A stretch of DNA of 64,000 bases from Escherichia phage VEcB. Below the pieces are notes generated by a model. It did not search any database, was not told the DNA's origin, and saw nothing but the letters and a program-made list of their open reading frames with translations. The stretch's first letter is position 1; each line of letters starts with the position of its first letter. The stretch is taken from the sequence record NC_052663.1, one strand, 5' to 3'. The position numbers and the translations under genes are program-made. Shown here in pieces: positions 10,765 to 63,992 of the stretch.

Positions 10765-11169
10765 TTATTGTAGCTTAAGTGAACTGCGAAGACGTTTCTC
10801 TTGCTGATCACGAATATGTTGTGGAACCTCATGAATTGAGTCGTTACCGTGCCTATTTTCAACAACTAAAGAGATAACTTGATAACCAAACTCTTCGGCA
10901 AGAGTAAAATAAGGTTTAAGTTCTTTCTCTGTGGTTGAAGTGTTAGAGACAATAATCTTTTTAATATTAGATGCCATAGCATCACGAACAATACTCTGAC
11001 ACCATGCGTGTGCTTTACCTACATTTTCTGGCTTCCAATCGTAAGCCCCGTTTTCTGTGTAATGATATTGATCTGCCTCACAGATAGGCCAATAACCTTC
11101 AGAAATAATTTCTGCTACTGTAGATTTACCTGCACCTGAAACACCACGTAAAATGATAAGTTGTTTCAT
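10765..11169 (-). CDS. P-loop kinase (polynucleotide-kinase-like)
   Basis: 134 aa; Walker A GVSGAGKST at N-terminus; adjacent to ligase-like and phosphoesterase genes. Confidence 0.55.
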   Translation of the reverse strand: MKQLIILRGVSGAGKSTVAEIISEGYWPICEADQYHYTENGAYDWKPENVGKAHAWCQSIVRDAMASNIKKIIVSNTSTTEKELKPYFTLAEEFGYQVISLVVENRHGNDSIHEVPQHIRDQQEKRLRSSLKLQ

Positions 11170-12102
11170 TTAGCCTCCAAAGAAGTTTTCTATTTCTTTA
11201 CGTCGCTCTTGTGGGTCTAGAGCAGCCCATTGAACCTTCGTAAAGTTATTTCGAAGCCATTCTAGCAAAGTATAATATTCTTCGTCAACAATTTGTTTAG
11301 CATTTTTTGGGTTGTCCCAAATCATATCCCACTTCTTATTGCCACCACGCATAAGGAACTTCTTAGCAAGATAGTATGGTGACTTAATCTTTAAGAGTAA
11401 GTTAAACGGATAGTTTGTTTCACGAACAACAAAGCCTTCGTGTCTACAATGTTTAGACATTTCAACAACATCTGAAAATTTAATCATCGGATAAACTTCA
11501 GGACGTTTAAATTTTGTAATAGATGCAATCCCATCAAGAACACCTTCAGGTAACATGAAACTTGTCCCATCCAGGTTTTGAATTCTTGCTCCAATTAAGT
11601 ACGCGCCTGGTTCTTCTTCGACAATATGTGGATCAGAAGGATCGCAGATTTCAAAAAGAAAAGTTGCTTTTGCACTTTCTGTCCACTTAATGAAATACTC
11701 TATGTCGTCACACTCGGAAACAATACGGTTCTTTGCCATAATTGCAAAATCTGATTCTAGGCTCCCTGTTGTTGATACAACAAGTTTCCCTTTGTACACA
11801 CCTACAGATGCCATAAAACCGTTTACTTTACGGACAGCATCTACAAGTTGGTCTGCTGGAAGATCTGTACCATTTTCAAAACGATTAAAGATTTTAGTAA
11901 AAGGCCAAATAACAACATTGTCTTCTGAGTCAACAACCAACCCACGACAATCTAGAAGGCGTTTGTCTACGTCCCACAAATTGTCCCAGAATACATTGTT
12001 TTTGTATTTAAGTACAGCAAGACCAGCATACTCTCCAGATTTAACTTCTTTTTTATGCACTAAACCTTTTGCAATCAGGTCATCACAATTGAACTTAGCC
12101 AC
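11170..12102 (-). CDS. RNA-ligase-like nucleotidyltransferase
   Basis: 310 aa; candidate motif I RKVNG, motif IV EGFVVRE, motif V LLLKIKSP. Confidence 0.5.
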   Translation of the reverse strand: MAKFNCDDLIAKGLVHKKEVKSGEYAGLAVLKYKNNVFWDNLWDVDKRLLDCRGLVVDSEDNVVIWPFTKIFNRFENGTDLPADQLVDAVRKVNGFMASVGVYKGKLVVSTTGSLESDFAIMAKNRIVSECDDIEYFIKWTESAKATFLFEICDPSDPHIVEEEPGAYLIGARIQNLDGTSFMLPEGVLDGIASITKFKRPEVYPMIKFSDVVEMSKHCRHEGFVVRETNYPFNLLLKIKSPYYLAKKFLMRGGNKKWDMIWDNPKNAKQIVDEEYYTLLEWLRNNFTKVQWAALDPQERRKEIENFFGG

Positions 12103-12103
12103 C

Positions 12104-12655
12104 TTAATCTCCTTTGATTATCTTATGATGATCTACAACAACAATATCACGCTTATCCATAATAGAGATGATTTCGTCAAAATGCAAGATTTTTCCGTGT
12201 ACGTCCCAACCAACATCCAACATTTTCCCATACAAATGATCAGGGAATGATCCGTGAGAGTGCCCGTGTAGCATGATTGATCCATGCCCTTGTTTATTCC
12301 AGGCAGCCATAGGGTAATGACTTAAGACGAAGAACAGTTTCTGATATTTCACTTCGTCATAATATACCACTTCACCATACTCTGCAAGCACTTTTCTGTG
12401 CTTACTGTAATCATGGTTCCCAACACAGTAAGTAATATCCCCTTGGAGACGGGAAGCAATCTTACGGGTATCTTCTTCAGTCCCGAAACAGAAGTCCCCA
12501 AGATGGTACATTTTTACTCCTGGTGTTGTGGCACATTTGTTCCATGCTTCGATCAGTGCTTCTGTCATATGCTCCATATCTTCCCACGGGCGATATTCAG
12601 GAGCAAACTCTCGAATACGTTTGTGCATAAAATGCAAATCACTTGTAATAAACAT
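12104..12655 (-). CDS. calcineurin-like metallophosphoesterase
   Basis: 183 aa; DLHF, HLGDF, VGNHDY, HGHSHG metallophosphatase motifs. Confidence 0.7.
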   Translation of the reverse strand: MFITSDLHFMHKRIREFAPEYRPWEDMEHMTEALIEAWNKCATTPGVKMYHLGDFCFGTEEDTRKIASRLQGDITYCVGNHDYSKHRKVLAEYGEVVYYDEVKYQKLFFVLSHYPMAAWNKQGHGSIMLHGHSHGSFPDHLYGKMLDVGWDVHGKILHFDEIISIMDKRDIVVVDHHKIIKGD

Positions 12656-13169: not shown

Positions 13170-13544
13170 TTAATAGTTAACACGTTTAATTTCAACACCA
13201 TAGGATGAAATAAAATTTTCCTTAGCTAACATATATTTACCAGCAGCAGAAGGATTTGATGTATGAACATAGATAGTTTTAAGAGCATCCCATTCACCTG
13301 CGTACAACATACATTCTACATCTAAGAACGCATGATATCCTTCTTGATCTTCCCCAAGATCATTATCGAAGTGTATTTCTGAGATGTTATTGAAATTATC
13401 TTCATCTGAAACAAAAGATGACCAATCCCCAAAAGATTTTAACCAAATGGCATCCTCATAACCATAATCTTTAGGATCTCTTAAATCGTCTAACCAAAGA
13501 ATTTTAGCCACTATCAACCCCCTTCCTGTTTCTCTTCTTTCCAA
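13170..13544 (-). CDS. hypothetical protein
   Basis: 124 aa ORF. Confidence 0.45.
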   Translation of the reverse strand: MERRETGRGLIVAKILWLDDLRDPKDYGYEDAIWLKSFGDWSSFVSDEDNFNNISEIHFDNDLGEDQEGYHAFLDVECMLYAGEWDALKTIYVHTSNPSAAGKYMLAKENFISSYGVEIKRVNY

Positions 13545-15137: not shown

Positions 15138-15479
15138 TATTCCCTCCTATACGGCTCTGTAACGAGCTAATGGCCTTTAAGATATGCAATCACCTTACCT
15201 CACAGTAAAACTCGTTACAATCGTTTTTAGGAGGTTTAGGTTGTACTTAAAAATAATCCAAAAAGGTGTTGACAAACGCAAAAAAGTATGCTACCCTAAC
15301 CCCCGAAAAACGCCGAGCGCAGCGAGGGGGGTGTTATCTAATCTTGTGATACATGATCTAACAGACAACTGAGTAGTCTACATATAGCACTATGTTATGT
15401 CTATAATACTAACATACGTACTCTATACTAACAATAGATTCTTTAATAATTTTATTATTAATTAAATAATAAATATCTA

Positions 15480-15508
15480 TTGACTTTAGATCTATCTGTA
15501 TGTAGAGT
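15480..15508 (+). promoter_or_regulatory. sigma70-like promoter TTGACT-N17-TAGAGT with AT-rich upstream region
   Basis: -35 at 15480-15485, -10 at 15503-15508, about 40 nt upstream of prs start. Confidence 0.45.
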
Positions 15509-15547
15509 AGAGAACATAAAGTCCTAACTCAACTAAGGAGATAAACA

Positions 15548-16441
15548 ATGAAAGTTAGTATTCTACATGGTGTTGACTGTTATGTTACTGATGTAGACGT
15601 TAAAGTCTTTACATTCTCTGGTGGAGAACAACATGTTCAACTAGACACGAATCTATCAGGTTTCAATCATGCTACAGACAGAATCTTACTCTCTTTAGAA
15701 GTAAGATCTGCTAAAGACTTGATGACTTTGGTTATGACTAAGAATGCATTGGACAATATGCTATATCATAAACCATATTGTGTTGATTTGCTCATGTTGT
15801 ATGTGCCATATGCACGACAAGACAGAGTGTGTGAACCTGGGGAAGCATTCGGAGTTAAAGCATTTGCTTCTATAATTAATTCATTAAATTTCTCACGTGT
15901 TATCGTTGCTGATCCACATAGTGATGTTACTCCAGCGGTGTTTGACAGACTCTGTGTAATACCTCAAGAAGAGATTGCTTACGAAACTTTAAAGTGGAAG
16001 TTACGTATGGAGAATTTTGCTCTTGTTAGTCCTGATGGTGGTGCTCTTAAGAAAATATTTAAATTATCTAAGAAAATGTCTTTAGATGTGTTCTGTGCAG
16101 AGAAGGTTAGAGATACTGCAACAGGTGCTATTGTTCGTACAGACATTTCTGTACAGGATTTCAATAAGCGTAACCTGATGATCGTAGATGATATCTGTGA
16201 TGGTGGTAGAACTTTTATCGAATTGGCTAAAGTGCTACGTGCTCGTAACGCAGGTAAGATTGAGTTATATGTTACACACGGTATCTTTTCTAAAGGTCTT
16301 AAAGAGTTAAGTGAGCACTTTGACTGCATTCATTCTCTTAATGTGTGGGAAGATAACATCCAAGAAGATTCCGGTGTTCTTGTTAAGAATCAGTCAGATT
16401 TGCAACAACAAATTGTATCTCCATACGTGTGGAATTTTTAA
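15548..16441 (+). CDS. prs: ribose-phosphate pyrophosphokinase (PRPP synthetase)
   Basis: 297 aa; PRPP-binding motif LMIVDDICDGGRTF; AAGGAG RBS. Confidence 0.8.
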   Translation: MKVSILHGVDCYVTDVDVKVFTFSGGEQHVQLDTNLSGFNHATDRILLSLEVRSAKDLMTLVMTKNALDNMLYHKPYCVDLLMLYVPYARQDRVCEPGEAFGVKAFASIINSLNFSRVIVADPHSDVTPAVFDRLCVIPQEEIAYETLKWKLRMENFALVSPDGGALKKIFKLSKKMSLDVFCAEKVRDTATGAIVRTDISVQDFNKRNLMIVDDICDGGRTFIELAKVLRARNAGKIELYVTHGIFSKGLKELSEHFDCIHSLNVWEDNIQEDSGVLVKNQSDLQQQIVSPYVWNF

Positions 16442-16451
16442 ATAATAAATG

Positions 16452-16480
16452 TTGACAATAGGGAGTATGCTTAGTAAGAT
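16452..16480 (+). promoter_or_regulatory. sigma70-like promoter TTGACA-N17-TAAGAT overlapping an 8-bp inverted repeat
   Basis: -35 at 16452-16457, -10 at 16475-16480; GGGAGTAT...ATACTCCC palindrome spans spacer and -10. Confidence 0.45.
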
Positions 16481-16512
16481 ACTCCCACACTAACAAACAA
16501 GGAGACATAACT

Positions 16513-18246
16513 ATGAATATTTTTGCACCTTTTGCTACTGATTGGTATAAGCCTGGTCACAAGCAGATGTACAACCAAAATACAAAACTCATTTTCTCTA
16601 ATTTAACTCCTCGTAATGATAAAAACTTTGCACACTATGCAGATCGTGAAGCACGTGGTGTCATTGTTTTAGGTATTCGTCGAGCAGTAACCGATGCTCT
16701 TGTAACTATGTGGGACGGCTTCTTTAAAATGTCTCGTAGTGCAGCAGTAAATAAATTTTATCGTATGTCTAAAAATGCATTAGGTGCTTCTGCTCCTTCT
16801 GCTGAATGTTGGGGAGAATTGCACGATTTAGGTTATCTTCCGCTAGAAGTTCGATCTCTGCCAGAAGGTGTTTTGTGTCCTATTGGTGTTCCTGTGTTTA
16901 CTGTGCATAACACTTTAGAAAAATTCTTTTGGTTAACTAACTATGTGGAAACACTATTGTCAGATGAAACTTGGAAGACAATGACTAACGCCACAGCAGC
17001 TTTTCAGTATAAGCGTATCGCTATGGCGTATGCGATGGCAACGTGTGATAACATTGATCACGTTAATTTCCAGTGTCATGACTTTAGTCTACGTGGCTTA
17101 AGCAATATCGAAGATGGTTATAAGAGTGGTATCGCTCATTTGGCATCTTTCACAGGAACAGATAATATTCTGGCTATTGAGACTGTGCATGATTATTATG
17201 GTATTGATTATGATCAGTTTGTTGCAGGTTCTATTCCGGCAACAGAACATTCAGTAGCAACGACTAACATTGGAGCTATTGTTGAAGATCTGAAGAAACA
17301 TTTCCCACATCTTAAAGATGATGTTGATGGGCTTCGTTATGTAGCAGAGAAAGAGTTTCTTCGCCGCTATATCGAAGAAATTGTTCCAGAAGGTTTTTGT
17401 TCATATGTAGCAGATTCTTATGACTACTGGGCTGTCTTGACTCGCATTCTGGTAGAATTGAAAGAATCCATTATGTCACGAAATGGTCGTCTTGTTATTC
17501 GTCCAGATTCAGGAGATCCGGTTAAAGTTGTTGCAGGATACAATGTTGAATCTTTTGATAACTATGAAGACCTTTTAAATAATGGTATTGCTCCAGCCAC
17601 TGAAGTAGTTCATTTGGCTGATGTTAATAAGTATTACAATGTTCTTCAGGATTGCAGTGTTGCTGATTGTATTGATGAAACTTATGAGATTCCTTATTGT
17701 GAAGCAGTAGGTTCTATTCAAATCCTTTGGGAAGTGTTTGGTGGTACTATCAACCGAAAAGGCTACAAGGTTCTTGATCAGCACATCGGTATGATTTATG
17801 GTGATTCTATTACTGTTGAACGAGAACACGAAATCTTACGCCGACTGAAGAAGAAAGGTTTTGCAGCTTCCAATATTGTATTTGGTGTTGGTAGTTATAC
17901 TTATCAGTTCAATACACGAGATACTTTTGGTTTTGCTGTTAAAGCAACAGGTAGTATCATCGGTGAACACGAAATTTTGGTAAGTAAGGAGCCTAAAACT
18001 GATCCTGGTAAACGTTCTGCAAAAGGTTTTATTAAGGTTGTTAAGGATACAAACGGTAAACTTTCTCTCGTGGATAATCTTTCTTTTAAAGATATTCAAG
18101 ATGAAGACAATGAGTTAAAAGTTATCTTCAGGGATGGTACGGTTATTACACCACAAGTAGAAGGACGTGATGAAACATTTACGGATATCCGCAATCGTGT
18201 TGATGTAGAGGTTCTTCGTACTATGGGAACCATCCAGGTTGACTAA
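16513..18246 (+). CDS. nadV: nicotinamide phosphoribosyltransferase (NAMPT/NadV)
   Basis: 577 aa; N-terminal FATDWYKPGHKQMY resembles the conserved NAMPT TDSYK-x-THYKQY region; size typical of NadV. Confidence 0.8.
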   Translation: MNIFAPFATDWYKPGHKQMYNQNTKLIFSNLTPRNDKNFAHYADREARGVIVLGIRRAVTDALVTMWDGFFKMSRSAAVNKFYRMSKNALGASAPSAECWGELHDLGYLPLEVRSLPEGVLCPIGVPVFTVHNTLEKFFWLTNYVETLLSDETWKTMTNATAAFQYKRIAMAYAMATCDNIDHVNFQCHDFSLRGLSNIEDGYKSGIAHLASFTGTDNILAIETVHDYYGIDYDQFVAGSIPATEHSVATTNIGAIVEDLKKHFPHLKDDVDGLRYVAEKEFLRRYIEEIVPEGFCSYVADSYDYWAVLTRILVELKESIMSRNGRLVIRPDSGDPVKVVAGYNVESFDNYEDLLNNGIAPATEVVHLADVNKYYNVLQDCSVADCIDETYEIPYCEAVGSIQILWEVFGGTINRKGYKVLDQHIGMIYGDSITVEREHEILRRLKKKGFAASNIVFGVGSYTYQFNTRDTFGFAVKATGSIIGEHEILVSKEPKTDPGKRSAKGFIKVVKDTNGKLSLVDNLSFKDIQDEDNELKVIFRDGTVITPQVEGRDETFTDIRNRVDVEVLRTMGTIQVD

Positions 18247-18317
18247 ATAAAAACTTCGTGATAAGATTAAGGTAAGGAGAGCCTGCAACTGCCCTGGATG
18301 GGCTTCACGAAGGATTT

Positions 18318-18539
18318 ATGAAACAACATAATTTTTATTTTCGTTGCCGAGCCTGTAACAGACACTTGACTAATCATTCCCGTAGAGACAGGAATGGTAA
18401 TATTCAAGAGTCGGATCTATGCTCGATTTGTACAAGTTTGGCATTCGACGACAGTCCCGAAAGGGTTTATCAACATCAAAGTGTAACTGATCTTCTTCTA
18501 AATTACACAGCACCAGAGGAGGAATTAGATTTCACATAA
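18318..18539 (+). CDS. hypothetical small Cys-rich (zinc-finger-like) protein
   Basis: 73 aa; CRAC...CSIC. Confidence 0.4.
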   Translation: MKQHNFYFRCRACNRHLTNHSRRDRNGNIQESDLCSICTSLAFDDSPERVYQHQSVTDLLLNYTAPEEELDFT

Positions 18540-19329: not shown

Positions 19330-19358
19330 TTGACATTTACTTAGTTTTTTGTTATAGT
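19330..19358 (+). promoter_or_regulatory. sigma70-like promoter TTGACA-N17-TATAGT
   Basis: -35 at 19330-19335, -10 at 19353-19358, immediately upstream of a tRNA-like element. Confidence 0.5.
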
Positions 19359-19369
19359 TACTATGAAAA

Positions 19370-19451
19370 CGGGGTGTATCTCACCTGACTTCTAATCAGG
19401 CGTTAACCGAGTAATTGGAGTATGCAGGTTCGAATCCTGTCACCCCGGCCA
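19370..19451 (+). tRNA. atypical tRNA-like element (canonical acceptor, T-arm and CCA; anticodon-like loop CTTCTAA; no recognisable D-arm)
   Basis: acceptor CGGGGTG/CACCCCG, T-arm GCAGGTTCGAATCCTGT, hairpin CCTGA-CTTCTAA-TCAGG, GNRA hairpin CCGA-GTAA-TTGG; D region only 7 nt. Confidence 0.35.
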
Positions 19452-49639: not shown

Positions 49640-49885
49640 ATGAGAAAATTTTTAATAGGTATGTTTTGTACATATCCTGATAATAAAGTCAGTTCTACTA
49701 AAGTTTGGAATGCTATTGGTATGATTGTTATGTCCAGTATGTTTATTTATTTGGGAATTGATAAAGAAATTCCTGAATGGATGGGCTGGGCTTTTGTTTT
49801 TATGATCACGCCATCCAGACTAATGAAGAATTTAATAGATTTACGTTGGGGCAGATCACCTGCCCCTGATAAGGAGGATAACTAA
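49640..49885 (+). CDS. small membrane protein (two TM helices; holin-like topology)
   Basis: ATG at 49640 preferred over GTG 49625. Confidence 0.35.
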   Translation: MRKFLIGMFCTYPDNKVSSTKVWNAIGMIVMSSMFIYLGIDKEIPEWMGWAFVFMITPSRLMKNLIDLRWGRSPAPDKEDN

Positions 49886-51372
49886 TGGCAGATTATGGTT
49901 TAACAGATGCTGGTTTTGTCATTCCAACGTTTGATGATATTCTAAATAATTATATGACAGCATTGAAAAACACTTTCGGTGCAGATACAGCTACATCTGA
50001 AGATACAGTCTTTGGTCAACTGTTTCGTATTATTGCATATACAGATTACACCCTTTGGGAAGGTATGCAAGGTGTTTACAATACCCAAACCTTAGATGGT
50101 GCAGAAGGTATTTACCTTGATGAAATTTTCTCTAAAAGGGGTTTTTATCGTAAAGCTGCTTCTGCTGGTAGTGGTTATGCTTATGTTAAATCTAACAATA
50201 AGGCAGCTTGGACTTATGAACTAAGCACAGATGTTTATTTTAATGCCGATAACGATTTAACATATTATGTCAGTGCACCGACAATGTTGAATGCTAAGAT
50301 TGGAGCATATACCATTTCTAAAGCAAACGCAACAGCTTCTGGTGAAACTTCTATTACTTTCTACATTCAAAGTGCTATTGATGGTGGTCTTAACAGTAAA
50401 ACACTAAGTCCTAGCAATACAAACTTTATTGTAGATCTCACGAATTTCATTAAAGCTAACGTATCAACAACAGATCGTGCTTTAGTATGGAATGATGCCA
50501 GTAATGTTTACATGGGTTATAATCCAGAAGATAATGTTAACCCAGTAGGTCTAGTAACACCAGTGAAATTTTACGCATCTATTGCAATAGGTACAAAATG
50601 GAGTGAAATTCCAGTTACGTGCTCAGACGTTGGTTATAATCCAGTAGGCACAGAAAGTATCACAGGTATTTCTTCAACGTTTACAGGCTTTTTAGATACA
50701 GGTAACTTCTATCCATTCTCTCCAGGTACAGATGTTGAAACAGATGCAGAATTCCGTTCTCGTTTCAATGATAATATGGATGAAGCTAATGCTGCTACTC
50801 GTGCTGCTATTGTTAAAGCTCTACTACTGACAGATGGTGTGACAAAGGTTAAGATTTATGATAACCCTACATTACACGATCAGGAACATGCTCCAGCTAT
50901 GACATTCCAGACTATTGTGTATGGTGGTACAGCAGAAGAAGTTGCACAGGTTATTTATAATACTAAGCCTATTAACACCTTAACCTATGGTACAACAGCA
51001 ATTACTATCGTAACAGAAGATGGCGGTCAAGAAGTAATTCGTTTTTCTCCTGGTGACAATGCTGAATATTCACTTAAACTAGTATATCAAACTGGCAATG
51101 GTAGTGTGTTAAGTACAACAGAAAGAGAAAATATTGTTTCTGCTCTTTCAAATCTACAGGCTTATTTTGAGCTAGGGTCAACAGTAACTAACGATCAGAT
51201 AAAAGGTGTAATTTATTCTGCACTTGCGTTCGGACGCTTGACTTCTCTCCGTGTTTATGTTAAACTTAATACTGAGGATGACAGTAAATATAATGAGGGA
51301 GATATCACTCCAGCGTACAATGTTGTACCATCCTTTGACCTTGATAATATTTCCTACGAGTACGGAGTCTAA
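49885..51372 (+). CDS. putative baseplate J-like protein
   Basis: 495 aa; weak resemblance only. Confidence 0.3.
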   Translation: MADYGLTDAGFVIPTFDDILNNYMTALKNTFGADTATSEDTVFGQLFRIIAYTDYTLWEGMQGVYNTQTLDGAEGIYLDEIFSKRGFYRKAASAGSGYAYVKSNNKAAWTYELSTDVYFNADNDLTYYVSAPTMLNAKIGAYTISKANATASGETSITFYIQSAIDGGLNSKTLSPSNTNFIVDLTNFIKANVSTTDRALVWNDASNVYMGYNPEDNVNPVGLVTPVKFYASIAIGTKWSEIPVTCSDVGYNPVGTESITGISSTFTGFLDTGNFYPFSPGTDVETDAEFRSRFNDNMDEANAATRAAIVKALLLTDGVTKVKIYDNPTLHDQEHAPAMTFQTIVYGGTAEEVAQVIYNTKPINTLTYGTTAITIVTEDGGQEVIRFSPGDNAEYSLKLVYQTGNGSVLSTTERENIVSALSNLQAYFELGSTVTNDQIKGVIYSALAFGRLTSLRVYVKLNTEDDSKYNEGDITPAYNVVPSFDLDNISYEYGV

Positions 51373-62877: not shown

Positions 62878-63471
62878 TTAAATTTTAAATTCTTCGTTGT
62901 TAAATGAATCCAGTGTACGTACTTCTGGTTCTTTGGGAATGAAAACGTCTTTTACAAAGCGGAACATAGGGAAACGTTCTGCCATTTTACGGACGTGTGC
63001 TTCTTTACCTGTGTATCGGTGATTAATAGTACAAATATTAGTTTTCAGTGCAAATTCAAAATCTGGATGATATACATAATTTTGACCATCCCAGTAACAC
63101 AAGCAAATAGCTACATCAAAGTTCCATACGATTTCACTGCGTACACCTTCTTCCATGATCATAAAGTTAAACTTAAGATCTTTATAGTATGCTTCAAATA
63201 CCCATTTCAAATGTGGTAGTTCGGCATAAGTGTGTTCTGTTTGCTTAGTAATTTGTTTAACATTACGTGCACCAACACCCAACATCAAAAATTTCTCTAC
63301 TAATACAAGTGTATTGTGGTTAGGCATACGCAAGTAAATGTCAATATCTTGCGCAGGTTTCTCTAATCGCCAGTCACGTACAGCGCCGCCAGCTACAATT
63401 GCAAACGGATCTACCAGTTGGCACATACGTAATACTTCTAAAGCTCGTACTTTTTGATCTTCAATATTCAT
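62878..63471 (-). CDS. minimal nucleotidyltransferase with CCA-adding-enzyme head-domain signature
   Basis: GGAVRDWRLEKPAQDIDIY matches GGxVRD...DxD; ATG at 63471 with AGGAG RBS preferred over GTG 63492. Confidence 0.5.
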   Translation of the reverse strand: MNIEDQKVRALEVLRMCQLVDPFAIVAGGAVRDWRLEKPAQDIDIYLRMPNHNTLVLVEKFLMLGVGARNVKQITKQTEHTYAELPHLKWVFEAYYKDLKFNFMIMEEGVRSEIVWNFDVAICLCYWDGQNYVYHPDFEFALKTNICTINHRYTGKEAHVRKMAERFPMFRFVKDVFIPKEPEVRTLDSFNNEEFKI

Positions 63472-63479
63472 ATTTTCTC

Positions 63480-63992
63480 CTATCGTGTCCACTCTTTGTG
63501 TTGTTCTACATGCTCAAGCATTTCATTATATAGTGCTTTAAGATGTGGAACAACTCTTTCATCTTCAGTTTCAAAGAATTTTGTAAGCTGTTCTGCCTTA
63601 GCCTTCAACCAACAAAGATGCGCTTCAATTTCAGTATTAAAACGTCCCAGTGTTATAACACGTCCATCACGTTGAATATGGGCTTTATACTTTTTACGAT
63701 CTTTTTCGTAACTACATCCTACCATAGTCCCATGAGATCTTTTACTTACTCTATAAGCTAAGAACTTGTTAAGATCTCCTGTTACTAAAAGACAGGTATC
63801 GGGAGAGTAAACTCTCCCTCCTATAATATCTTTATCAAGTTCTAAGTTTTCCCAGTTATCCCAAGTTTGCAACCAAGAGTAGAAATTGGAGAACAGTTTC
63901 CATTCTTCACAAACCGTCACCCCATTATAACAAGGATCACGTTCTTGTTGACAAGGGGAGTAACACCTCCCCAACATAGCCATCCATTTCAT
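63480..63992 (-). CDS. HNH-AP2 family homing endonuclease
   Basis: 170 aa; WMAMLGRCYSP and AP2-like GCSYEKDRKKYKAHIQRDGRVITLGRF; paralogous to 8297-8926. Confidence 0.55.
   Translation of the reverse strand: MKWMAMLGRCYSPCQQERDPCYNGVTVCEEWKLFSNFYSWLQTWDNWENLELDKDIIGGRVYSPDTCLLVTGDLNKFLAYRVSKRSHGTMVGCSYEKDRKKYKAHIQRDGRVITLGRFNTEIEAHLCWLKAKAEQLTKFFETEDERVVPHLKALYNEMLEHVEQHKEWTR

Follow-up and report, generated by a model that had tools for sequence, protein, structure and literature searches.

The stretch of DNA analysed here, 64,000 nucleotides of Escherichia phage VEcB (NC_052663.1; hereafter the window), carries two side-by-side genes at 15548–18246 whose products resemble a phosphoribosyl pyrophosphate (PRPP) synthetase (Prs) and a nicotinamide phosphoribosyltransferase (NAMPT). 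The question raised by this locus is whether the pair would make nicotinamide mononucleotide (NMN), which an NMN adenylyltransferase (NMNAT) would then convert to NAD+, or whether the two enzymes have another chemistry. An earlier interpretation made from the letters alone, here called the sequence-only reading, had chosen the first of these answers and had linked the pair to phage counter-defence by NAD+ restoration. Its two open reading frames (ORFs) were found exactly as stated and its theme of NAD+ counter-defence was right, but its enzymology was not borne out: by identity to published table entries and by sequence signatures, the pair corresponds to an ADP-ribose pyrophosphate synthetase (Adps) and a nicotinamide ADP-ribose transferase (Namat). 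With a probability of about 0.9, we assign the two genes to the NAD+ reconstitution pathway 1 (NARP1), by which a phi92-like E. coli phage would counter host defence. NARP1 was described in a preprint by Osterman et al., which appeared in Nature in 2024.

Gene pair and phage lineage

The window belongs to an E. coli myovirus of the phi92 type (genus Justusliebigvirus); at the nucleotide level it is 99% identical to the phages Nernie, alia and phi92. The locus was found at 97–99% nucleotide identity in 54 phage records, all of them phi92-like, among which were these three phages and three BASEL phages. The adps gene directly precedes namat, both being on one strand and separated by a spacer of 71 bp (Table 1), the neighbour criterion for NARP1 being a distance within 10 genes. 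An AAGGAG ribosome-binding site is present 7–8 nucleotides 5′ of each ATG, at 15535–15540 for adps and 16499–16504 for namat. Recent horizontal acquisition of the locus was considered and rejected, as its G+C content of 0.37–0.39 equals the window mean of 0.38 and so gives no compositional signal.

Alignment of the putative amino acid sequences with those of the relatives showed that Adps is the same as alia gp231 at 297/297 residues and as phi92 gp107 at 296/297, and that Namat is the same as alia gp232 at 575/577 residues (99.7%) and as the phi92 protein at 572/577. The supplementary tables of Osterman et al. 2024 (bioRxiv 10.1101/2024.02.11.579819) list proteins of both alia and phi92; the row for the alia Adps (Table S1) gives its Namat association as 'Yes', and both Namats are entered as 'Adps-associated'. 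As the proteins of the window are identical or nearly identical to the alia proteins in these tables, the locus is an already catalogued NARP1, for which the system, the chemistry, the structures and the genus membership have all been published.

The first enzyme

The first protein matched the Pfam families Pribosyltran and Pribosyl_synth, and its score on TIGR01251, a broad subfamily model, was marginal (118.8 bits, cut-off 113). It fell far below every NCBIfam cut-off for a Prs equivalog, with 99.6 versus 297 on the subfamily model NF002320 and 98 versus 296 on the equivalog NF002095. Its match to PHROG 619 (phrog_619) scored 305.7 bits. The protein shared 40.8% identity with the ICP1 Adps and 32% with each of the Bas63 and SPbetaL1 Adps proteins, compared to 24% with E. 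coli Prs.

The ICP1 Adps, which has been characterised both structurally and enzymatically (PMC13586617), was used as the reference for residue mapping. In this alignment F23, R90, H124, D163, K186 and D214–D218 of the window protein corresponded to F18, R87, H121, D161, K185 and D212–D216 (D212, D213, I214, C215 and D216) of ICP1, and all were conserved. The acceptor-site residues of ICP1 among these are R87, H121, D161, D212, D213 and D216. An alignment of 56 database homologues showed the mapped residues to be mostly invariant or at least 90% conserved; F23, whose ICP1 counterpart F18 contacts the adenine, was invariant among them, and C217, D218, G219 and G220 of the PP loop were each at least 90% conserved. 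Mutation of the catalytic lysine, which is located on the beta-hairpin, kills activity in the Adps of ICP1 (PMC13586617) and in that of SPbetaL1 (bioRxiv 10.1101/2024.02.11.579819).

The AlphaFold2 (AF2) model of the protein had a predicted local distance difference test score (pLDDT) of 94.7 and showed a PRPS-like fold, with template modelling (TM) scores of 0.70–0.76 to the human, E. coli and Legionella PRPS. The likeness to the canonical class I enzymes (E. coli Prs and human PRPS1) thus lies in the fold and in the shared catalytic Lys, Asp and His, whereas the identity to E. coli Prs is low and the PP loop differs (Table 1). The C-terminus differs too: the Prs hidden Markov models stopped at residue ~250–257 and left ~50 model positions unmatched, and the tail was left unaligned with E. 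coli Prs by MAFFT. Loss of the C-terminal alpha11–alpha12 filament/regulatory module of PRPS has been reported as a signature of the Adps family; the AF2 model, however, has a C-terminal helix, which is described below. By its identities to Adps proteins, its scores on PHROG 619 and on the Prs models, and its predicted PRPS fold, the product of the first gene falls in the Adps group rather than among the canonical Prs enzymes.

The second enzyme

The second protein matched PF04095 (NAPRTase) and NF006629, and scored 624.9 bits on PHROG 448 (phrog_448). A phmmer search of the Protein Data Bank ranked the SPbetaL1 Namat (9W5X/9W5W, E 1e-117) above Haemophilus ducreyi NadV (3e-100) and human NAMPT (~4e-48). 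The AF2 model (pLDDT 90.3, predicted TM score 0.90) had 9W5X and 9W5W as its top Foldseek matches (TMt 0.92), and the order of the fold matches was the same as that of the sequence matches. The catalytic core was conserved, with D10, Y12, F191, R194, D217, H246, R330 and D332 in the window protein compared against D13, Y15, F189, R192, D215, the catalytic His, R306 and D308 in the SPbetaL1 Namat.

The selectivity-clamp helix of Namat has the published signature GS-X-phi-X-phi-X-phi-TRD (PMC12774641), which the motif found in the window matches (Table 1). This site was compared in seven Adps-linked proteins and in four Nampts without a neighbouring adps gene (KVP40-like PG216, phiEap-3, Aes012 and B1VFA), with PG216 standing in for KVP40. 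All seven Adps-linked proteins had GS and TRD, and in each of them position 3 was aromatic; position 7 was aromatic in six and Cys in SRT6, and position 5 was Thr in 4MG. The four Nampts had GGGLLQxxxRD at this site. H. ducreyi NadV (9KE8), whose TMt to the window Namat was also 0.92, had GAQTYQRNTRD there, with no aromatic residue at either position 3 or position 7. A less strict form of the motif, G[SA]-x6-TRD, was present in 118 of the 120 closest database homologues of Namat; all 118 had F or Y at position 3, and at position 7 there was F or Y in 115 of them and Met in three. In a neighbour-joining tree the window protein clustered with six Adps-linked Namats (41–49% identity), apart from the four Nampts (27–33%). 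The B1VFA Nampt gene was observed to adjoin a NadM-Nudix gene.

The loop of the clamp is longer in the window Namat than in the Nampts, and K37 and F39, which lie at its start (Table 1), were at least 90% conserved in 47 homologues. The published rule for this part of the protein is a lengthened beta1–beta2 loop whose third position is Arg, Lys or Tyr, together with a stacking residue (PMC12774641).

Two extra segments were found in the window Namat, at residues ~253–277 (17269–17343) and ~343–396 (17539–17700), which come in the sequence after the catalytic His and after the RPDSGDP motif, respectively. Both were confidently folded in the AF2 model, the first prolonging a helical hairpin and the second forming a small alpha/beta unit. 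The Namats of 4MG, SRT6 and Bas63 have them too, in part or whole, but those of SPbetaL1 and ICP1 do not, nor do any of the Nampts. The paper on the Namat structure does not discuss them (PMC12774641).

Two further observations were made on Namat homologues. The metagenomic protein P0095, of 867 amino acids, has an insertion of ~290 amino acids exactly within the catalytic RPD|SGDP (VIRPD-CYDGETK ... VMVCGN-SGDPV), which by its sequence looks like an intein. In the ICP1 isolate 2018_Mat_001 (L009:2501-2641) a stop separates the N-terminal ~27 namat codons from the remaining frame, and the annotated coding sequence begins downstream; the Namat of this isolate may be truncated or may have another start.

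That adps and namat are a decayed or inactive remnant without function is extremely improbable. Both ORFs are intact and have strong ribosome-binding sites, and all of the catalytic residues have been kept. The conservation across the 54 phage genomes also argues against decay, as do the homologues at 49–75% identity, which retain the motifs, and the folds predicted for the two proteins, which are confident and complete.

Published chemistry and proposed mechanism

NARP1 was described as the pathway formed by Adps, which turns ADP-ribose (ADPR) plus ATP into ADP-ribose pyrophosphate (ADPR-PP), and Namat, which converts ADPR-PP and nicotinamide to NAD+ (Osterman et al. 2024, bioRxiv 10.1101/2024.02.11.579819). 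The authors of that work began from the same Pfam reading, Prs plus NAMPT, and found it to be wrong: when the Prs-like enzyme of SPbetaL1 was purified and assayed as a PRPP synthetase, no product could be measured, and from ADPR and ATP it formed ADPR-PP, and the NAMPT-like enzyme preferred ADPR-PP when PRPP was also offered. Deletion of the pair sensitised Bas63 to SIR2-HerA and FADO to DSR2. The counter-defence of Bas63 was independent of the host PncC and NadR, and no surplus NAD+ was made without a defence system (all bioRxiv 10.1101/2024.02.11.579819). The NARP1 activities are known from the homologues of SPbetaL1, ICP1, DyoEdafos and P. foliorum, and structures have been published for Namat (PMC12774641; 9W5X/9W5W) and for the ICP1 Adps (PMC13586617, NAR 2026).

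The window pair is like the NARP1 of Bas63 (JohannRWettstein), SPbetaL1, FADO and ICP1 in having adps upstream of namat, in the Lys, the acceptor residues and the PP loop of Adps, and in the core and clamp motif of Namat; the same gene order on one strand is also present in Bas63, SPbetaL1, ICP1 and SRT6. It differs from the genes of Bas63 and SPbetaL1, which abut or nearly do so, in the spacer with its promoter-like site, from the Namats of SPbetaL1 and ICP1 in the two extra folded segments, and from the ICP1 Adps in having Cys in place of Phe92. For this phage the NARP1 assignment draws on the genes themselves, the identity to catalogued NARP1 proteins, the conserved residues, the group placement and the predicted folds. 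The chemistry and the anti-defence phenotype are those of the homologues in SPbetaL1, Bas63, ICP1 and FADO, from which they would carry over to the window pair.

If so, a host NADase effector, which may be of SIR2, TIR or SEFIR type and belong to a system such as SIR2-HerA, type I Thoeris, DSR1 or DSR2, would split NAD+ into ADP-ribose and nicotinamide. Adps would then move the beta,gamma-pyrophosphate of ATP to ADP-ribose, at the 1″ hydroxyl of its distal ribose, with ADPR-PP and AMP as the products, and Namat would swap the pyrophosphate of ADPR-PP for nicotinamide, giving NAD+ in one step. This route would involve neither an NMN intermediate nor an NMN adenylyltransferase. Because it starts from what the defence reaction itself produces, the pathway would run only during NAD+ cleavage.

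Weighing of the assignment and the search for an NMN adenylyltransferase

Several points weigh against the NARP1 assignment. The proteins of the window share only 32–44% identity with the assayed enzymes and the experiments are those of the homologues alone; it is from these homologues that we infer the enzymatic activities of this particular pair. In Adps, the adenine-contacting Phe92 of ICP1 is replaced by Cys95, both here and in at least 90% of the close homologues, and Bas63 differs at this position too. The AF2 model of Adps keeps one C-terminal helix (282–295), so that the protein may not share the loss of alpha11–alpha12 reported for the family. In the clamp loop of Namat, K37 is followed by Asn and not by an aromatic residue, and the conserved aromatic F39 is shifted by one position towards the C-terminus relative to the published rule. 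Finally, the SPbetaL1 Namat forms NMN from PRPP in vitro without ADPR-PP (bioRxiv 10.1101/2024.02.11.579819). By analogy with this enzyme, the window Namat may have a minor NAMPT-type side activity.

The last of these points also speaks for the explanation that had been given in the sequence-only reading, in which a genuine PRPP synthetase feeds a genuine NAMPT (NadV), and the NMN formed is completed to NAD+ by an NMNAT of the phage or the host, as in a NARP2-like or host-completed salvage. Further support for it comes from the generic names, namely Pribosyltran, NAPRTase, TIGR01251 just past its cut-off, NF006629 and the GenBank product names. We nevertheless regard it as very improbable. The Prs-like protein fails all of the Prs equivalog cut-offs and resembles E. 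coli Prs less than it does the verified Adps enzymes, and the Namat clusters with Adps-linked proteins and has an adenine-clamp motif that is absent from the Nampts. The homologous 'Prs' gave no product in the PRPP test, and Bas63 achieved counter-defence without the need for the host PncC or NadR. Moreover, searches at the level of annotation and BLAST revealed no NMNAT, either in the window or in the whole genome of alia.

For the window, this negative agrees with the sequence-only reading, which had recognised no NMNAT there. The sole 'nucleotidyltransferase' annotation in the window (62878–63492, − strand) was considered as an NMNAT and rejected, as it is a weak match to a PolyA_pol/CCA-type head domain and not to CTP_transf_like. 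A tblastn search with the B1VFA NadM-Nudix NMNAT gave no match in the window or in alia (E > 1), the sensitivity of the search being at the level of annotation and BLAST. A genome-wide search for an NMNAT or Nudix partner had also been proposed; no NMNAT, NadR, NadD or Nudix annotation was present in the complete genome of alia, the 99%-identical relative. The idea that the NMNAT step is supplied elsewhere in the genome or by the host thus found no support, as NARP1 makes NAD+ directly from ADPR-PP and nicotinamide. No NMNAT is missing, since NARP1 requires none.

The other known routes also differ from the NARP1 assigned here. NARP2 of Vibrio phage KVP40 (the NadV Nampt with the bifunctional Nmnat/Nudix enzyme NatV) is alike in its NAMPT-fold second enzyme and in restoring NAD+ under NADase defence. 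However, KVP40-type Nampts have GGGLLQ..RD, a short clamp loop and the low identity to the window Namat noted above, and NARP2 has no Adps and requires an Nmnat. NARP3 of phage Bas30 (a PnuC-like transporter and a NadR-like enzyme) serves the same purpose with unrelated proteins and nicotinamide riboside as the substrate; neither of its genes was annotated in the complete alia genome.

Promoter-like sites

The sequence-only reading had placed a TTGACA-N17 promoter in front of each gene. This was so for the site in the 71-bp spacer, whereas the site upstream of adps has TTGACT, and both are consensus matches only (Table 1). The stretch upstream of the adps site is 97% A+T. Occurrences of a stricter pattern, TTGAC[AT]-N16-18-TAnnnT, were counted over the window and compared to the expectation from first-order Markov simulations. 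There were 28 occurrences versus 8.5 ± 2.8 in the simulations, which is therefore more than chance; eight of the 28 are on the + strand between 15269 and 20772, and most of these eight have an A+T-rich stretch before them and an ORF or tRNA gene after them. As matches in the sequence, the sites exceed chance, but they are not mapped transcription starts. Host RNA polymerase might transcribe the pair from both sigma70-like sites, probably early in infection.

At the same threshold, the spacers of Bas63, 4MG, SRT6 and ICP1 contained no equivalent promoter-like site, and the site at 16452–16480 is therefore lineage-specific. The adps–namat interval of relatives holds other sequences: an ORF of 177 amino acids without a known family in 4MG and two small ORFs in a metagenomic relative. 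In Vibrio phage Gary, an Adpp gene is located between adps and namat (Osterman et al. 2026 preprint).

Macro-domain, Sir2 and other genes

Some NARP1 operons hold Adpp, a Macro-domain phosphatase acting on ADPR-1″-phosphate, which extends the protection to aRES (NARP1-AP), or the RyR-domain glycosidase RyDEP (Osterman et al. 2026 preprint). Pfam detected neither of these domains in the ORFs within about three genes either side of adps and namat, and a tblastn search with the NARP1-linked Macro protein of SRT6 gave no significant match across the 64-kb window. The 177-aa ORF of phage 4MG (4MG_092) was considered as a Macro phosphatase; it had no Pfam match and no homologue in the window or alia. 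The locus thus shares the Adps/Namat core with the NARP1-AP of Gary and differs from it in having no Macro gene in or beside the operon. On the evidence of the window it would be a minimal two-gene NARP1, which published work predicts to be ineffective against aRES.

A Macro homologue is encoded elsewhere in the alia genome. The C-terminal Macro domain of this protein, gp066, aligned with the whole of the validated Gary Adpp at 41% identity (E 2e-36), and the identity to the Macro protein of Pseudomonas phage SRT6 was 44%. It has an extra N-terminal segment of ~85 amino acids, and its gene is ~81 kb from adps in the alia record. O-acetyl-ADP-ribose deacetylase 1 (E 3.5e-10) is among its closest solved relatives. 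Screens for NARP1-AP that are based on operons, taking two genes either side, would miss the unlinked gp066. It is possible, though we hold this tentatively, that the phi92-type locus is a dispersed and structurally distinct NARP1, with folded insertions in Namat, a promoter of its own for namat and completion in trans by a gp066-type Macro protein. If this is true, gp066 acting in trans would give NARP1-AP-like resistance to aRES.

The alia genome also encodes the Sir2-family protein gp165, of an NAD+-consuming enzyme family. Together with gp066 and its deacetylase relative, this gene would fit a phage-internal NAD+ cycle, in which the chemistry is that of NARP1 but the ADP-ribose comes mainly from the phage's own NAD+-consuming enzymes and the pair closes the cycle. 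The proposal is purely inferential and highly improbable: the genes of gp165 and gp066 are a long way from adps and namat and are not part of the window, and the published NARP1 deletions show a phenotype specifically on hosts with NADase defence, with no excess NAD+ when defence is absent.

An Adps-like gene (45% identity to that of the window), a NAMPT/Namat-like gene and an NrtR-type Nudix regulator were observed in a row on the chromosome of Geminocystis sp. NIES-3708 (L020:4001-7191). The NrtR-type regulator family responds to ADP-ribose, and by its sequence this trio is a putative bacterial NARP1-like cassette beside a regulator. In alia, a 71-aa ORF outside the window (gp113, L011:31674-31889) is annotated 'phosphoribosylpyrophosphate synthetase' by transfer from another phage record; the annotation is probably an error, as the ORF is far too short for a PRPP synthetase.

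Table 1. Features of the NARP1 locus, its surroundings and related alia genes. Positions are those of the window unless a record is given; aa, amino acids.
Feature	Position	Strand	Description
AAA_33 kinase	10765-11169	-	Part of putative split RNA-repair module
Rnl1-type RNA ligase	11170-12102	-	PF09511; part of putative split RNA-repair module
Metallophosphoesterase	12104-12655	-	Part of putative split RNA-repair module
cREC_REC 'cyclic-phosphate processing receiver' protein	13170-13544	-	PF20274, E 3.9e-13
Sigma70-like site upstream of adps	15480-15508	+	TTGACT-N17-TAGAGT, consensus match 9/12
adps, predicted ADP-ribose pyrophosphate synthetase (PRPS-like), first NARP1 enzyme	15548-16441	+	297 aa, ATG start
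Codon of catalytic Adps Lys186	16103-16105	+	Corresponds to ICP1 Lys185 and SPbetaL1 Lys162; invariant in 56 homologues
Adps PP loop, Cys217-Thr222	16196-16213	+	CDGGRT; aligns with ICP1 Cys215-Ser220 CDGAAS; E. coli Prs IDTGGT
Sigma70-like site in adps-namat spacer	16452-16480	+	TTGACA-N17-TAAGAT, consensus match 10/12
namat, predicted nicotinamide ADP-ribose transferase (NAMPT-like), second NARP1 enzyme	16513-18246	+	577 aa, ATG start
Start of Namat selectivity-clamp loop, residues 32-39	16606-16629	+	TPRNDKNF; K37 aligns with SPbetaL1 Arg40
Namat selectivity-clamp helix motif, residues 460-470	17890-17922	+	GSYTYQFNTRD; Y462 at position 3, F466 at position 7
alia gp066, Macro-domain protein	L011:5853-6569 (outside window)	-	238 aa; PF01661, C-terminal domain
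alia gp165, Sir2-family protein	L012:1319-2131 (outside window)	-	PF02146, E 1.6e-22; NAD+-consuming enzyme family

Neighbouring genes

The GC skew switches sign near 15300, at the point of divergence between a leftward and a rightward block of genes. In this divergent intergenic region, a 62-aa ORF (15184–15372) was rejected as spurious; its frame is broken in alia and phi92. Directly 3′ of namat is an ORF of 73 amino acids (18318–18539, + strand) with two CxxC pairs, which is zinc-ribbon-like and gave a weak RecR_ZnF match (E 0.004). It is preceded by a third promoter-like site (18239–18267), which overlaps the namat stop codon, and it is intact in alia and phi92, yet without annotation in either record.

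Downstream of adps and namat, ARAGORN identified 15 tRNA genes in an array. Rfam added a sixteenth tRNA-like element (19370–19448, + strand; RF00005, 38.6 bits) that was absent from the ARAGORN output and that lies just downstream of the best promoter-like site of the region (19330–19358, 11/12). The GenBank/RefSeq record of phi92 contains a 151-nucleotide 'hypothetical tRNA' (49736–49886; ~17105–17255 in the window) inside namat. ARAGORN and Rfam were both negative for it and it is probably an annotation artefact.

Just upstream of the NARP1 locus and near the tRNA array, the − strand genes between 10765 and 13544 (Table 1) look like a split RNA-repair module, a Pnkp/Rnl-type answer to anticodon nucleases. 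Its metallophosphoesterase and the cREC_REC protein were also considered as parts of NARP1, with the processing of an ADPR cyclic phosphate in mind, and were rejected, as their neighbours are the RNA ligase and the kinase of the RNA-repair module.

Significance of the locus

Current understanding of NARP1 is unchanged by this locus, and the main value of the analysis is a correction of annotation. The names 'ribose-phosphate pyrophosphokinase' and 'nicotinamide phosphoribosyltransferase' wrongly suggest an incomplete NMN salvage, whereas the pair is a complete, self-contained route that recycles the products of NADase defence to NAD+. For phage therapy and host range, by analogy with the homologues, a phi92-like carrier of the pair would be expected to resist NAD+ depletion by SIR2-, TIR- and SEFIR-based defences, and to stay open to attack by aRES if no phosphatase is supplied in trans.

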